From assembly GCA_963662945.1 (NCBI GenBank), contig OY759974.1, positions 2,080,001 to 2,144,000 of the forward strand: a DNA stretch of 64,000 nt, written 5' to 3'. The stretch comes from Arcobacteraceae bacterium (GTDB lineage: Bacteria > Campylobacterota > Campylobacteria > Campylobacterales > Arcobacteraceae). The notes beneath the pieces are model-generated. The model was not told the origin of the DNA. It ran no database searches and saw only the letters and a program-made list of their open reading frames with translations. Shown here one piece after another: positions 48,669 to 55,098 of this stretch. Numbering within the stretch: position 1 is the first letter of the stretch; every line of letters begins with the position of its first letter. The position numbers and the translations under genes were made by a program.

Positions 48669-50069
48669 CTATAATTCCTTTATATAGTTTATAATTTTAT
48701 TTCGTTGATTTTCGGTTAAGCTCATAAAATCATTTTTGATTTGTAAAGCTTCGCCTGCGTGCCATAAAATAGCTTCTTCAATAGTTTTTGCTCTTCCATC
48801 ATGTAAAAATTCAGGTTCTTTCCCTAAAGTTAATTTATGTTTTCCTATTCCCCAAAGTGGAGCAGTTCTCCATTCATTTTTATTTGCTTTGAACTCCACT
48901 CTTCCATCACTTAAACCTTCACCCATATCGTGCAGTAACATATCTGTAAATGGTTTTATCACATAGCCAGAGTTCAGAGTATACGAAGGGATATGGCACT
49001 TTACACAACCAATTTGTGCAAAAAGTTTTTCCCCTTCAAGTTCTGTTATAGTTGATTTTGGAATTTTTAAATTTTTTAAATAAAATGCAATAGATTCCAG
49101 TCTATGCATTGGCAAATCAAAAGGTGTGCCAGCTCTTAATGTATCTCCTTTTGGAGCTTTGAGACAATTTTCTTGGGAGCTTGTACAGTTCTCATTTGGG
49201 AATAGGGGAGTTGTGAGACTCATATCATTATGGGCTGCTGCTGCACTTTGGTGTATCACTGATGGTGCTGAAGCTTTATAAGTATATCTTCCAACTTTAA
49301 AAGTTTTTTCAGATGGACTATAGACAATATTTGCTTTTCCTGATATTCCATCATTATTTTTATCTTCTATATCTTCATTTTTTAAGATTTGTTCATCGCT
49401 TAATTGTTCTAAAAGTCCCAAACCTAGAAGGGCAGGGGCAAGTCTAGAAGATAGTGAAACTTTTTCATTCATCTTTCCATAGTTTAAATGGGTAAGTTGA
49501 TTTTCAACTCCATGAAATGGTTGTTTTAGTGTAACTATTTTTCCATCTGGATAGGTTACTTTGATATCTTTATATGCTATAAGTGGCTTTGCTTCAAAAG
49601 GTACATCTTGTGAACCATTGATACTTATTTGTGAACCATAGGTTTCTTCACTTACAAAACCATTGTATTTGAGCATATCTTGATGTTGTTTTGAACCATT
49701 TGAGGGAATTGAAACTCTTAATATATATGATCTTGATATAGAACCATTTTCATTATAAAGTGAGCCTTTGCCATTTTTTGGATGACAGCTAATACAGGTA
49801 TTTGCATTGAAAAGTGGACCTAGTCCATCTCTTGCAGTTGTAGCACTTGGTGCTTCTACCCAAGGGATTCTATAAAAACTTTTTCCTTCTATAAACTTAT
49901 CTATTTGTTCATCATTTAAACCTGAGACTTGTTGTGAAAAAATATTTTTAGAAGAGTTTGTTGTTGTATAAATCTTATCAAGTTTTTCTTGTATTGTTTC
50001 ATTTGATAGAAGTGCAGTGGTAAAAACCACTGTACTTAAAAGAAAACTATATTTTAGTTTCTTCTGCAT
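48669..50069 (-). CDS. di-haem oxidoreductase (DHOR/DUF1111)
   Basis: ARDGLGPLFNANTCISCH, CVKCH, LLHDMG, EWRTAPLWG, LHDGRA. Confidence 0.93.
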   Translation of the reverse strand: MQKKLKYSFLLSTVVFTTALLSNETIQEKLDKIYTTTNSSKNIFSQQVSGLNDEQIDKFIEGKSFYRIPWVEAPSATTARDGLGPLFNANTCISCHPKNGKGSLYNENGSISRSYILRVSIPSNGSKQHQDMLKYNGFVSEETYGSQISINGSQDVPFEAKPLIAYKDIKVTYPDGKIVTLKQPFHGVENQLTHLNYGKMNEKVSLSSRLAPALLGLGLLEQLSDEQILKNEDIEDKNNDGISGKANIVYSPSEKTFKVGRYTYKASAPSVIHQSAAAAHNDMSLTTPLFPNENCTSSQENCLKAPKGDTLRAGTPFDLPMHRLESIAFYLKNLKIPKSTITELEGEKLFAQIGCVKCHIPSYTLNSGYVIKPFTDMLLHDMGEGLSDGRVEFKANKNEWRTAPLWGIGKHKLTLGKEPEFLHDGRAKTIEEAILWHAGEALQIKNDFMSLTENQRNKIINYIKEL

Positions 50070-51384
50070 CTGTTACATCTTCAACTGATAATTTGATACC
50101 ATTTGCACCAGCAATATCTACCATTTTATCACCTAATTTTCGTAATTCATTTTTTAGTTTTACGATTACTTTAGCTTGTGGATCAGTTGGATGAATCTGA
50201 TAATCAAAATGTCTACTTGTTTGAGCAATTGCATTGATTGATTCAATTTTAGATTCAATTTGACCTAAAAGTTCTAGTATCTCTTTTTTAGCTTCAACAG
50301 ACAAAGCATCTATAGGAGCTGTTCCATAATCTACACCTTTATATGTTCCCATAAGAAGATTTTTAAATCCTTGATAGTTTGTAGCAATATCTCTATGAGT
50401 ATTATCACTAAAACAACTATGCTCATCCTCTTCACTAGGAGTTAAAACAGCAACTGCAATTCTTTCATTTGCTAGTTCTGATTTTATAAATACACCCATC
50501 CCTGCAAAAATTTGTTTTAAGGCTTCATTTTGAGCAATGTTTTTTGAACTATCACTATTTATTCCTAATATTGCAGCTCTATAGTTTGTCATATCTCCTG
50601 TTTTCCAAGCATCTGAAATGATTGTTAAATCATCAACAATTTTTTGAGCACTAGCTTTTAGGTAAGCTAATCTTCTCTGTGCATTTTTATCTGTAGTAAA
50701 GTCACTTAAAGGTCGCTGACCTGCAGTTAAAGCACCTTTTGTAATTGAATCTTTTACAAAGTTACTATAATCTTGATCTTGTCCCCAAAGTAAAAATTCA
50801 ACAGCATGGTATCCTGTAGCTACATTTGCTTCCCCACCATTTTCATTAAGTGCTGTTATTGCATCAACTGTGATATTTGTCACATCTACACTTGAACTTC
50901 CTTCACCACCTGGGTTGAATTTACCTTTTGTATCTATGATATTTCCTGATGTTTTAGCACCTTTTGCATCAATAGTATAATCAATCATATTTTCATCCAA
51001 TGGCCAAGCATTGATTTGTCCCTCTAGTGCACCATAAGTTTCTGCTACCCAACCTTCTTCTGCATCAATAGGACCATTAGAAAGTCTAAAAGCTTCAGTT
51101 AAACCATAAGATTCTCTAGAGATTAACCAAGCGGCTTTTGCTTCCACTAAAGTATCTTCTGTTGGATTTGCTGTGAATTTATCAATAGCTATTTGTAAAA
51201 GTTTTGCATCATTTAAGGCATCTTTATAGTTGTCTTTAGCAATATTTGCATAAGTTTCTAACAGTGATGGTTCATTTTGTATTTTGGCAGTTGATGGATT
51301 ATTTCCAGTACAACCACTTAAAGCTAAAATAGCAGCAAAGCTTAGTCCTGTAATCATTGTTTTTGTTGTTTTTATCATCATCAT
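50047..51384 (-). CDS. imelysin/IrpA-like iron-regulated lipoprotein
   Basis: Lipobox LSGC, INAWPLDE, GYHAVEFLLWGQD, EDEHSCFSDNT. Confidence 0.93.
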   Translation of the reverse strand: MMMIKTTKTMITGLSFAAILALSGCTGNNPSTAKIQNEPSLLETYANIAKDNYKDALNDAKLLQIAIDKFTANPTEDTLVEAKAAWLISRESYGLTEAFRLSNGPIDAEEGWVAETYGALEGQINAWPLDENMIDYTIDAKGAKTSGNIIDTKGKFNPGGEGSSSVDVTNITVDAITALNENGGEANVATGYHAVEFLLWGQDQDYSNFVKDSITKGALTAGQRPLSDFTTDKNAQRRLAYLKASAQKIVDDLTIISDAWKTGDMTNYRAAILGINSDSSKNIAQNEALKQIFAGMGVFIKSELANERIAVAVLTPSEEDEHSCFSDNTHRDIATNYQGFKNLLMGTYKGVDYGTAPIDALSVEAKKEILELLGQIESKIESINAIAQTSRHFDYQIHPTDPQAKVIVKLKNELRKLGDKMVDIAGANGIKLSVEDVTDAEETKI

Positions 51385-51389
51385 TCCTT

Positions 51390-51884
51390 TTATTTTGAGA
51401 CTAAAAAGCCAATTTCTTTATCAATTATATGTAAACCGCGACCCTCTAAACCTACAATATCCATCTTGTCAAGGATACCTTTGAATAGCGCTTCTTCTTC
51501 ATGTTGTTCACTTAAATACCATTGAAGAAAGTTAAATGTTGCATAATCTTTTTGTTCTAAAGTTAATTCAACTAATTCATTGATTCTACTTGTAATAAAA
51601 AGTTCATGTTTATATGTTTTTTCAAATACATCTTTAATATCTTTAAAAACAGTATCAGGAGCATCAATACCTGAAATAACCGCTTGTGAACCTGTTTCGT
51701 TGATATAATTGAATAACTTATACATATGTCCTAATTCTTCTTTTGAATGATCTGCTAGAAATTTTGCAGCACCATCTAGACCTTGTGCTTTACACCAAGA
51801 TGACATCGAAAGATATAAGTTTGAAGAGAAATGCTCCAAATTTATTTGATGATTTAATTTATCTAATACCTCTTTTTTTAACAT
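51390..51884 (-). CDS. ftnA: non-haem ferritin
   Basis: QINLEHFSSNLYLSM, EELGH, HELFIT, FLQWYLSEQHEEE. Confidence 0.96.
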   Translation of the reverse strand: MLKKEVLDKLNHQINLEHFSSNLYLSMSSWCKAQGLDGAAKFLADHSKEELGHMYKLFNYINETGSQAVISGIDAPDTVFKDIKDVFEKTYKHELFITSRINELVELTLEQKDYATFNFLQWYLSEQHEEEALFKGILDKMDIVGLEGRGLHIIDKEIGFLVSK

Positions 51885-51912
51885 TGGATTTTCCTTTATT
51901 TATGTTATAATA

Positions 51913-51979
51913 AAGTTCAATATTTTATTGAACACCACAAGTTAAAGATGTGTAGTTTGGCGGCTTACATCTTTAACTT
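51913..51979 (-). repeat. two-hairpin element, copy B (between porin and ferritin)
   Basis: GTTCAATA-TTT-TATTGAAC plus AAGTTAAAGATGT...ACATCTTTAACTT; homologous to 53137-53199. Confidence 0.85.
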
Positions 51980-51987
51980 TTTTTATT

Positions 51988-53097
51988 TTAGAAACTGTAA
52001 ACTAACTGTGCACTATAATAAGTACTATCATCGTTTGCAACATGAGCATCAATATCAGCAAATATTAAACTCACTGTAAAATTTTTATATAATTCTTTAT
52101 CAATTGTAAAGTTAAACTCTTTTTCTGTTTCGTCTACAGTTCCATTTTTATAGTCTGTTGAACCATAAATTGCTCCAAAATCAAATCCTGCTACACTATA
52201 GTTTGCACCTATATAGTAAGTATCAGCATCAGTTCCATAAACTTGATTTCCACTATCTAATGGATTGATATTTTCACCTAAAGCCTCAAGAGTACCAATT
52301 CCTCCATCTTTATCTGTAGTGATATATCCTGCATTGACACCAAATGTATCGTTTGCGTAACTTAAATCTACAGCAGCAATATTACCATCTACAGTTCCTG
52401 CAACATCTTCATCTGTTGTAGTGTATTTAGCAATAGCACCAAAACCATTCATATTAAAATCAATTTTCCCACCAACTGCACTAAATGTATCTTTAGCATC
52501 CATATAGTATGCACCTAATGCTAAATTATCATTGATTGTATAAGTTGCATCTATTACATAAGCACCATCACCATTTGTACCAATATCAGAAAACTTGTAA
52601 AGTGCTTCATCATTTGCACTTGCACTTACTTTATCAGTATAACCTACGATTAAAGTAGTATTTGGAATTGCAGTTATAACTCCAACAGCAGCTTCATGGT
52701 AGTCCGATATCCATTCTAAATCAATCTCTTGTCTACCAAGTGTAAGTGAAAACACATCATTTGCATATCCTACATTTGCAATATTTAACAATGCTTTTGG
52801 AACATCTCTACCATCTTCATAATCACCATTTTCTTTTTCATCAAGTTCAGTACTTGACATAAATCCAACAGCTGCTTTAAATCCATTAAGTGTATCTGTT
52901 TCATAGTTTATGTTGATATGTCCTAGACTATATCCACTGTCAGGTGTAGTTCCACCATTGTCGTTACTTACAGTATACGCTGAAATTTCTCCACTTGTTT
53001 TTCCATTTTTAAATGCATCTTCTAAAGTATTGCTATCAGCTACTAAATTACTTGTAAGTAATGCTGCTGTTAATATGCTTAAGTTGATTTTTTTCAT
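51988..53097 (-). CDS. Opr/OprD-like outer-membrane porin
   Basis: Signal peptide, LEDAFKNGKTSGE, GRQEIDLEW, terminal YSF. Confidence 0.88.
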   Translation of the reverse strand: MKKINLSILTAALLTSNLVADSNTLEDAFKNGKTSGEISAYTVSNDNGGTTPDSGYSLGHININYETDTLNGFKAAVGFMSSTELDEKENGDYEDGRDVPKALLNIANVGYANDVFSLTLGRQEIDLEWISDYHEAAVGVITAIPNTTLIVGYTDKVSASANDEALYKFSDIGTNGDGAYVIDATYTINDNLALGAYYMDAKDTFSAVGGKIDFNMNGFGAIAKYTTTDEDVAGTVDGNIAAVDLSYANDTFGVNAGYITTDKDGGIGTLEALGENINPLDSGNQVYGTDADTYYIGANYSVAGFDFGAIYGSTDYKNGTVDETEKEFNFTIDKELYKNFTVSLIFADIDAHVANDDSTYYSAQLVYSF

Positions 53098-53136
53098 TTG
53101 ATTCTCTTTCCTTTTATATCAATTCATCGATTTTGT

Positions 53137-53199
53137 AAGTTCAATATTTTATTGAACGCCATTATTAAAGATATGTAATTTGACGGCTGTATCTTTAAT
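53137..53199 (-). repeat. two-hairpin element, copy A (upstream of porin)
   Basis: GTTCAATA-TTT-TATTGAAC plus ATTAAAGATA...TATCTTTAAT. Confidence 0.85.
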
Positions 53200-53221
53200 G
53201 TGTGAAATTTCCCTTTTTGAT

Positions 53222-53311
53222 TTAATTAGTAAGGTGTTTATGTCTATAATGAATTCCATTTACCTTTGAATTTTTTTTAAGAAAATTAAAAAACTGTCGT
53301 AAAAAGTTCAT
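53222..53311 (-). CDS. unannotated 29-aa small ORF / leader peptide
   Basis: AGAAAGGAG RBS 9 nt before ATG; MNFLRQFFNFLKKNSKVNGIHYRHKHLTN*. Confidence 0.6.
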   Translation of the reverse strand: MNFLRQFFNFLKKNSKVNGIHYRHKHLTN

Positions 53312-53361
53312 AACAATTAACTCCTTTCTAATTAAATTAAACAATGAAATTATAATTATAT

Positions 53362-53433
53362 TAATATTCATTATCAATATGAAATCTTATTATAAATATT
53401 CTTAATTATTTCTTATATTGATAGTTATTATCA
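53362..53433. promoter_or_regulatory. Fur boxes in the divergent porin/CDF promoter
   Basis: TGATAGT-T-ATTATCA (53419-53433) and TAATATT-C-ATTATCA (53362-53376) versus consensus TGATAAT-N-ATTATCA. Confidence 0.75.
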
Positions 53434-53549
53434 GTATTATTAAAATATTTATATCAATTTAAGTTAGAAATATATACTATACCTAGAATTTAGACTTATT
53501 GGAATACTAGTAGCATATAGTATTTTATATAATAACAGAGGAAAATATA

Positions 53550-54509
53550 ATGGAAAGTTGTAATTTTGGTTTAAATGAACATAAACCTTTTTTCAAAGAA
53601 GAGATGCACCATCACCATCATCATGAACATCACCATGGAGAACATACACATCATCACGAACATTCACACGATCATAGAGGTACAGACAAAAAAGTATTGA
53701 AAATTGCATTAACTATAACTTTTATTACAATGCTTGCTGAGTTTTTTTATGGTTTTTTATCACATTCTTTAGCACTGATTTCTGATGCTATACATATGTT
53801 TACACACTCATTTGCACTTATTATTTCACTTGTTGCAATTATTATTGCAAGTAAAGAAGCACCATTAGAGAAAACATTTGGATATTATAGAGCAGAAGTT
53901 CTTGCTGCATTTATAAATGGAATCACTATTATACTTTCGATTGTATGGATTTTATATGAAGCAGTTGATAGGTTTTTAAATCCACAAACCATAGATATAA
54001 AAACTGCAATGATTGTGGCTGTCATAGGACTTGTAGTAAATATTATTACAGGTGTTATTTTGATGCAAGGGGATAAAGATAATATCAATCTTAAATCTGC
54101 ATTTGTTCATATGTTAAGTGATGCTTTATCTTCAGTTGCGATTATTATTGGATATATTGTTATATCTTTTACAAATTGGTATTTTATAGATGTTATATTA
54201 GCTGTATTGGTTGCTTTTGTTATTGGAAGATGGGCTGTTGATGTTTTAAAACATTCTATCAATACTTTAATGGAAAGTTCCCCTATAGATATAGAAGAGG
54301 TAAAACAGTATATTGAGCAACATAAAGAGGTAATCGAGTTACACGATGTACATATTTGGGAGATAACACAAGATATGTATAATATGACAGCACATGTGAA
54401 GATTGAAAAAAGTTCTTTAGAAAATTATGAAGAGCTTTTAAAACAGTTAAACAATCAATTACAAGAGAAGTTTAAAATTGTACATACTACCTTTCAGTTT
54501 GAATGGTAG
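53550..54509 (+). CDS. CDF (CzcD/ZitB-like) metal transporter
   Basis: His-rich N-terminus, SLALISDAIHM, TFGYYRAE, HMLSD, LHDVHIW, HTTFQFE. Confidence 0.95.
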   Translation: MESCNFGLNEHKPFFKEEMHHHHHHEHHHGEHTHHHEHSHDHRGTDKKVLKIALTITFITMLAEFFYGFLSHSLALISDAIHMFTHSFALIISLVAIIIASKEAPLEKTFGYYRAEVLAAFINGITIILSIVWILYEAVDRFLNPQTIDIKTAMIVAVIGLVVNIITGVILMQGDKDNINLKSAFVHMLSDALSSVAIIIGYIVISFTNWYFIDVILAVLVAFVIGRWAVDVLKHSINTLMESSPIDIEEVKQYIEQHKEVIELHDVHIWEITQDMYNMTAHVKIEKSSLENYEELLKQLNNQLQEKFKIVHTTFQFEW

Positions 54510-54519
54510 TATACTATTT

Positions 54520-54984
54520 TTATAATGATTTGTTTTGACAATTTTTACATATGCCATACAACATCATAGTATGGCTTTGAAGTAAAAAACCATTTTCTAT
54601 TGCCACGAGTTCTTGTATTTTTTCAACTTCAGCATCATAAAACTCAACAATTTTTCCACACTCCACACATACCATATGGTCATGATGAGAGGTCAGTGTT
54701 AATTCATAAACTTTACTTTCAAAACCATCTATGGATATCCCTGTGACCGTATTAAGTTCTTCAAGTAAATTTAGAATTCTATAAACAGTTGCAATTCCAA
54801 TATTTATATTATAAGTACTTTTGACTCTTTTTGCCACATCTTCAGCACTAATATGTTTATCACAATCAAATAATATTTTTAATACATATTCTCTTTGATT
54901 TGAATTATTTAATCCTAATGATTTAATAGTTCTTCTAAATTTTAATATATATTCATCATAAGATACTGTTAAATTTTTTTTCAT
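54520..54984 (-). CDS. fur: Fur-family regulator
   Basis: IATVYRIL, HHDHMVCVECG, YGICKNC; ATG 54984 follows AAAGG. Confidence 0.88.
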   Translation of the reverse strand: MKKNLTVSYDEYILKFRRTIKSLGLNNSNQREYVLKILFDCDKHISAEDVAKRVKSTYNINIGIATVYRILNLLEELNTVTGISIDGFESKVYELTLTSHHDHMVCVECGKIVEFYDAEVEKIQELVAIENGFLLQSHTMMLYGICKNCQNKSL

Positions 54985-55030
54985 ATTGAAACCTTTAATA
55001 ATCATTCTAAAGTAAGTCAATTATCAATTG

Positions 55031-55098
55031 TGATAATTAATATCAAAATATTAACAGAGAGTAACTTTATTTAATCTTAATACTGATAATAGTTATCA
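55031..55098. promoter_or_regulatory. Fur boxes upstream of fur
   Basis: TGATAATTAATATCA (55031-55045) and TGATAATAGTTATCA (55084-55098). Confidence 0.75.

Follow-up and report, generated by a model that had tools for sequence, protein, structure and literature searches.

In the 64,000-nucleotide stretch of an Arcobacteraceae genome analysed here (hereafter the window), an open reading frame of 29 codons, originally described as unannotated, lies between a porin gene and a divergent gene for a CDF-type cation exporter, behind two Fur-box-like sites (Table 1). This locus raises the question of whether so short a frame is a gene at all and, if it is, whether its product binds metal, whether its translation senses metal and sets the expression of the genes that follow, or whether it works elsewhere in the cell. 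The original prediction offered the first two answers, a metal-binding small protein or a leader peptide coupled to a hairpin as in attenuation. Judged by comparison of sequences, the small ORF is a genuine conserved coding gene and more than a product of chance, and it lies in an iron locus wherever its surroundings were read. Its function points in a third direction: we consider it probable that the ORF encodes a translated, trans-acting small basic cytoplasmic protein belonging to a Fur-family iron regulon, and that this protein is neither a histidine metal binder nor an attenuation leader.

Table 1 Features of the iron cluster around the small ORF, in window coordinates
Feature	Position	Strand	Description
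Di-haem oxidoreductase (DHOR)	48669–50069	minus	Pfam match
Imelysin (Peptidase_M75) lipoprotein	50047–51384	minus	Pfam match
Ferritin	51390–51884	minus	PF00210, 1.3e-41
Two-hairpin module, copy B	51915–51977	minus	in front of ferritin
Opr-family porin	51988–53097	minus	Porin_4; opr_porin_1, 280 bits
Two-hairpin module, copy A	53139–53198	minus	stem 1 53198–53165, stem 2 53157–53139; 5' region of the porin
Small ORF	53222–53311	minus	29 codons plus TAA stop; ATG 53311–53309, TAA 53224–53222; 29-aa product MNFLRQFFNFLKKNSKVNGIHYRHKHLTN; new family of small basic proteins
Inverted repeat I1	53351–53316 with 53241–53206		36 nt; encloses the small ORF
Shine-Dalgarno sequence AGAAAGGAG	53329–53321	minus	9 nt before the ATG
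Promoter-like TTGATA-17 nt-TATAAT	53377–53349	minus	11/12 consensus matches; overlapped by Fur-box-like site 2
Fur-box-like site 2, 7-1-7	53362–53376	.	2 mismatches
Fur-box-like site 1, 7-1-7	53419–53433	.	1 mismatch
CDF cation-efflux gene	53550–54509	plus	divergent; His-rich N-terminus; shares the Fur-box intergenic region
Fur-family regulator	54520–55020	minus	two Fur-box-like sites in front (55031–55045 and 55084–55098)
TonB-dependent receptor	57291–55135		on the upstream side of the small ORF

The small ORF with its strong Shine-Dalgarno sequence is present as originally described, and it is indeed the first ORF behind the Fur-box-like sites. A DNA search covered 61 genomes, namely the window's own (G000) and 60 relatives, and the whole region is found in four genomes of the same genus, at 83% (G006), 78% (G013) and 73% (G009 and G025) DNA identity. 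The ORF, the Shine-Dalgarno sequence and the ATG are kept in all four, the peptides are 48–83% identical to that of the window, and AAAGGAG or AAAGGGG stands at the Shine-Dalgarno position; the alignment of these close relatives also retains the frame, the promoter and both Fur-box-like sites. Conservation in relatives together with dN/dS had been set beforehand as a test, and both came out in favour of a gene, with dN/dS at 0.10–0.45 in ten of ten pairs, figures that are rough because each pair offers only about 15 synonymous sites. Variable columns number 11, 6 and 17 at the first, second and third codon positions, respectively, and the Ser, Asn and Gly of the core are written with different codons in distant members.

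More distant members came from profile searches. A first profile, built from five peptides, gave weak matches in 184 Arcobacteraceae genomes, and inspection of these for the core motif left seven true relatives (G137, G020, G015, G011, G125, G004 and G185), to which a second profile added G129. After inspection of the candidates, the carriers amount to 13 of the 184 genomes, distributed over genera g1 (9/27), g8 (2/11), g37 (1/5) and g10 (1/6); they belong to a group of marine and wastewater bacteria. Two extra metagenome loci (L103 and L104) carry the small ORF as well, HMMER found nine proteins at E ≤ 0.001 among 1.84 billion representatives, and the family profile retrieved 16 proteins from a collection of 5.8 billion, the window's own peptide being absent from these 16. 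Altogether we count 25 distinct relatives from Arcobacteraceae genomes and metagenomes, and purine-rich Shine-Dalgarno-like sequences precede the ORF in 12 of the 13 genome loci, G129 being the one without. Several candidates were discarded on inspection: L059 and L095 are contained in long ORFs of the opposite strand, L041 and L048 have an in-frame stop within the motif, L050 lacks the core motif, and L074, L078 and L090 have neither the motif nor an iron context.

No existing family covers these peptides in the databases that we searched. None of the 16 proteins has a Pfam domain, and the sole source names among them are one 'hypothetical protein' and one garbled entry; the named protein records all read 'MAG: Arcobacteraceae bacterium'. 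The six members checked have no Pfam or NCBIfam family, a profile search of the PDB returned one chance match only (E = 2), and the ESM Atlas gave no usable match for the family. Of 8000 candidates scored in a search for longer proteins, none was a fusion, although this counts as weak evidence. Among 361 genomes from other families of the order, there was a single match at E ≤ 0.001, which was dropped because it lies inside a 596-aa ORF of the opposite strand. As far as searched, the family thus appears to be confined to Arcobacteraceae, where its distribution is so patchy that it must be dispensable in most relatives, although counts of absence are soft because a profile of 30 residues has limited reach. 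Our literature search brought up no publication that describes a protein of this sort in Arcobacteraceae. The main text of a small-protein census of C. jejuni (PMC11955535) contains none of 'ferritin', 'iron' and 'Fur' as a whole word; small ORFs related to iron could be listed in its supplements.

An untranslated chance ORF, kept only through the regulatory DNA that surrounds it, has to be weighed at this point, as the intergenic DNA is AT-rich and 83 ORFs of at least 20 aa occur in 7 kb. We regard this as exceedingly improbable: the frame, start, Shine-Dalgarno sequence and core recur in 25 sequences from at least four genera whose DNA has diverged, and dN/dS stays below 0.5 in every pair.

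What selection has preserved can be read from the peptides themselves. Each consists of an 11-residue amphipathic stretch, the core, and a basic tail that is between 2 and about 25 residues long, with a total length of 26–46 aa (one call of 65 aa probably has a wrong start), and all 25 members are basic, with a pI of 9.7–11.8 and a net charge of +3 to +13. The shared core, [FIL]LKKxSKxNGxYY[RK], broadens to [FIL][LIMF]K[KSQN]x[ST]K[IVTC]NGx[YH] over the 25 sequences, in which only K12, K16, N18 and G19 (window numbering) are invariant. The Phe-rich amphipathic helix that had been proposed for the N-terminus was borne out, with a hydrophobic moment of 0.70 over residues 1–11 of the window peptide, and an AF2 model of the G013 member, built with the family alignment, predicts helices at residues 3–14 and 16–29 (mean pLDDT 70, and 79 for residues 1–10). 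Hydrophobic residues are limited to the 11-residue amphipathic stretch in the 25 members. A type I toxin or small membrane protein was considered and rejected, as there is no transmembrane stretch and GRAVY lies between −1.21 and 0.00 in 25 of 25.

The histidines fared differently. In the window peptide, three of them fall within six residues (H21, H24 and H26, in HYRHKH), and a metal-binding protein or metallochaperone acting through this motif, possibly serving ferritin or the CDF exporter, would also suit the metal genes nearby and the three or four histidines of some relatives. Against it, 11 of the 25 members are free of His, no position is His throughout, H21, H24 and H26 are replaced by Y, Q or N in relatives, no Cys, Asp, Glu or His is conserved among the 25, and two carriers (G025 and G013) have no Pfam ferritin. 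We therefore abandoned HYRHKH as a metal site, with K12, K16, N18 and G19 being invariant instead, and we consider metal binding a very improbable function; the histidines of the window ORF, as well as its coupling to a hairpin, do not carry over to the relatives.

The genomic context was read in 15 loci, from the 13 genomes and from L103 and L104; the contig of L104 ends downstream of the small ORF, leaving 14 loci with a readable downstream side. The small gene always lies within an iron locus, with ferritin, imelysin, feoAB, porin or a Fur-family gene as neighbours. The next co-oriented gene is ferritin in eight loci (G006, G137, G185, G020, G015, G125, G129 and L103), imelysin in three (G009, G025 and G004) and feoAB in G011, where it carries Fur-box-like sites of its own. 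In the window genome, the small ORF is followed by the porin and then by ferritin; G000 is the only genome with the porin as the next gene 3', and the porin is missing from the corresponding place in G006, G009 and G025. In 13 of the 14 readable loci, an iron gene thus follows directly 3' and in the same orientation; the distance to the next gene is 10 to 143 nt, and the small ORF stands in the 5' leader of an operon in G000 and most loci, the exceptions being G013, G129, G137, G185, L103 and L104. In G013, the gene after the small ORF is convergent and the small ORF stands alone; in G137, G185, L103 and L104, the preceding gene is of the Fur family and its 3' end overlaps the small ORF; and the G129 copy sits between porin and ferritin, starting 2 nt past the porin stop.

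An iron gene directly 3' in nearly every locus is also what would be expected of a cis-acting leader or upstream ORF, the translation of which sets the next gene (ferritin, imelysin or porin) by coupling, by stalling or by remodelling of a hairpin. In the stalling variant, the ribosome would arrest on the KKxSKxNGxYYR stretch, and arrest peptides such as SecM, TnaC and SpeFL typically have a conserved peptide core. The gap to ferritin of only 10 nt in G020 and G015 agrees with such a role, as do the conserved hairpin module that separates the ORF from the following gene in five genomes and the ATCTTT just past the stop in G009 and G025, whose sequence would allow pairing with the 5' arm of stem 1. 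However, a leader in G013 would have nothing to regulate because the downstream gene is convergent, the feoAB genes of G011 come with separate Fur-box-like sites, the spacing between the ORF and the gene behind it varies widely, four loci overlap a Fur-family gene, and the G129 copy follows a porin gene. These loci weigh against a leader role in general, and the module and the folding of the ORF, described below, also argue against it, so that we consider cis action unlikely. Trans action is preferred because the gene stands by itself in G013 and in the middle of a unit in G129, and because of the separate sites in front of feoAB in G011 and the four Fur-family overlaps.

A trans-acting protein could still have had one of its neighbours as an obligatory partner. 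Bfd, for example, is small and iron-regulated, and its gene adjoins one for iron storage. Ferritin was rejected in such a role because two carriers, G025 and G013, both single-contig assemblies of 99% completeness, have no match to PF00210, and the family further differs from Bfd, which holds a 2Fe-2S cluster ligated by Cys, in having no conserved Cys. PF00210 also covers Dps and bacterioferritin, and neither of these two genomes has any match to it. Imelysin was rejected likewise because G013, G011, G137 and G125 (all 99% complete) have no match to PF09375; G013 possesses neither of the two.

The coupling to a hairpin that the original prediction proposed could be examined directly. The ORF was said to stop about 22 nt before hairpin copy A, and the measured distance is 23 nt (stem 1 starting from 53198). 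This hairpin is part of a two-hairpin module of roughly 60 nt, of which the window holds two copies. The module occurs 3' of the small ORF in five of the 13 genomes (G000, G006, G009, G025 and G004) and starts 23–33 nt past the small-ORF stop; in six copies, its pairing is kept in 92% of cells, with a compensatory change at two pairs only. Its distance to the following start codon is always 30–45 nt, no matter which gene comes next, and it is therefore taken to be part of the 5' region of the downstream gene. Across the compared sequences, the module does not consistently accompany the small ORF. Over the ORF itself, RNAalifold gave −0.28 kcal/mol for five orthologues, without any helix in common where the ORF ends, and no alternative terminator or antiterminator structure overlapping the ORF is conserved, the hairpins being without a T run. 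The inverted repeat I1, which encloses the ORF and would hide its Shine-Dalgarno sequence, was also tried as a regulatory structure and dropped: it is not conserved beyond G000, its fold is no better than that of shuffled sequences (z −1.14), and we judge it to be a chance feature of AT-rich DNA. Hairpin-coupled attenuation is thus supported neither by the distribution of the module nor by the structure of the ORF.

Two details of the module are recorded here in their own right. In the window, direct copies of it stand on both sides of the porin gene; in G006, a single module and no porin separate the small ORF from ferritin. This is consistent with the porin having been inserted and the module duplicated, or with G006 having lost the porin when the two copies recombined. 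In addition, the stem-1 loop (GCCGTCAAA-type) is conserved among copies whose stems differ, G004 included.

In general plan, the small ORF resembles the leader and arrest peptides trpL, hisL, mgtL, TnaC and SpeFL, being a short ORF that heads an operon and has a strong Shine-Dalgarno sequence and a conserved core in its peptide, and in some genomes it is followed by hairpins. It differs from them in that neither alternative structures nor a run of regulatory codons is conserved, and in that it stands alone or mid-operon in several genomes.

Alternatively, the RNA rather than the peptide might be the active element, either as a Fur-controlled small RNA or as a molecule with both functions. No RyhB-type RNA is known from Campylobacterota, no RyhB/FsrA-type system from Arcobacteraceae and no FsrA-like RNA from the lineage of this family; moreover, the G013 unit looks monocistronic and short, and the unit lies behind the best-conserved Fur-box promoter. 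The combination of third-position variation with amino-acid conservation across genera with diverged DNA speaks for the peptide, however, and no conserved fold was found, the fold z-score being as modest as already given for I1. A search of Rfam with positions 51300–54000 at E ≤ 10 yielded only chance-level matches to unrelated families. We consequently rate an RNA-based function as improbable and return to the trans-acting protein as the preferred explanation.

The regulatory part of this explanation depends on the upstream region. All sites were scored with the 7-1-7 pattern TGATAATNATTATCA, which is taken here as the Fur-box consensus. The window contains nine matches against 2.29 expected, a number reached in 0 of 100 shuffles, and the three matches with one mismatch all lie inside the iron cluster, one of them being site 1 and the other two preceding the Fur-family gene. 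Sites with at most two mismatches occur within 250 nt upstream of the small ORF in eight of the 13 genome loci, compared with a background of 0.07 per 250 nt over the remainder of the loci, and in four further loci they precede the co-oriented gene ahead of the small ORF. The head of the small-ORF unit therefore carries Fur-box-like sites in 12 of the 13 genomes, G011 having no upstream site at this threshold, and in an alignment of five genomes the promoter-like stretch is nearly invariant. From these consensus matches we infer that the small ORF is probably under Fur control; five Fur-family open frames above the Pfam cut-off in the window genome are candidates for the regulator. With Fur-box-like operators at the head of the transcription unit, the protein should be made when iron is scarce.

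Some features of this region attracted our attention beside the main question. In several genera, the two sites are paired at a nearly fixed distance between their starts, 57 nt in the window (53362–53433) and 59 nt in G185, G004, G129 and G125 (L067 948–1021, L068 874–947, L073 280–353 and L072 about 1297–1370 being further pair coordinates), which amounts to a fixed two-operator layout regardless of the next gene. Elsewhere on the G000 contig, outside the window, a stretch that shares 76% identity with the part holding the Fur boxes and the promoter (contig positions 2161609–2161716) lies just ahead of another Fur-family paralogue (2161807–2162169). The CDF exporter, which has its promoter region in common with the small ORF, contains 17 His in 31 residues at its N-terminus (window 53550–53690, HHHHHHEHHHGEHTHHHEHSHDH), and to find a metal exporter next to such sites would be unusual as a regulatory arrangement.

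Small proteins of metal regulons are known from other bacteria, and two cases invite comparison. MntS of E. coli, which belongs to the manganese regulon, is linked to, and acts on, the exporter MntP, and the small ORF is likewise divergent from a CDF metal exporter in G000, G006, G009 and G025; no homology between the two was seen, and the CDF neighbour is limited to these four of the 13 genomes. MntS is described as a small non-membrane protein of unknown fold that is made at metal scarcity (PMC4361602). A closer likeness in chemistry is offered by FbpA, FbpB and FbpC of Bacillus subtilis, which are described as basic, Fur-repressed proteins of 54, 48 and 29 aa in the response to iron limitation (PMC10730256). 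The size and charge of this class (<60 aa, strongly basic) are found in 25 of 25 members here, if the 65-aa call has a wrong start as is probable, and the ORFs of the family lie behind Fur-box-like sites; the family belongs to another phylum and is likened to Fbp as an analogue rather than a homologue, with no match of its own in Pfam, NCBIfam or the PDB.

In the preferred reading, the protein combines an N-terminal amphipathic helix, the invariant K-x3-K-x-N-G and an aromatic and basic tail, and it would act in trans on a partner encoded elsewhere rather than on an adjoining gene. As the protein is strongly charged, the partner would most likely be an RNA, another nucleic acid or an acidic protein, by analogy with FbpA, FbpB and FbpC. 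A bolder version, in which the small ORF is the founding member of an undescribed Fur-controlled family that forms a post-transcriptional iron-sparing arm in Arcobacteraceae, acting on RNA as FbpB does or binding and modulating the Fur-family paralogue whose gene it overlaps in four loci, seems to us unlikely.

Small proteins that belong to metal regulons are nothing new as a kind, whereas the family, its motif and its lineage are absent from Pfam, NCBIfam, the PDB and the literature we found. Metal-regulon small proteins such as MntS and FbpA, FbpB and FbpC are few, were found singly and tend to escape annotation. The 25 sequences described here, which have a sharply conserved core but no database family or name, are tied to iron loci in a group with environmental as well as animal-associated members. 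The family is a solid and testable new one and holds no surprise of principle. Should the protein be produced when iron is limiting and work in trans, it would provide a first handle on iron control in Campylobacterota beyond Fur, at the post-transcriptional or protein level.

Other genes recur around the small ORF. In G004, G020, G015, G011, G125 and G129 (loci L042, L043, L044, L045, L046 and L073), a gene of about 103–112 aa recurs no more than two genes away from the small ORF or from ferritin; the first 40 residues of its product, and these only, match DUF2325 weakly (E 0.002, below the Pfam cut-off). Flavodoxin is encoded directly upstream in G020, G015 and G011. Finally, a conserved ORF of 54–59 aa (MSDIQVEVKVQRIIAQSGYKKNDNLLCPIMKILQMRH...) at L103 102–266 and L104 2369–2548 precedes the unit of Fur-family gene, small ORF and ferritin in these two loci, and it may encode a second small protein of that unit.
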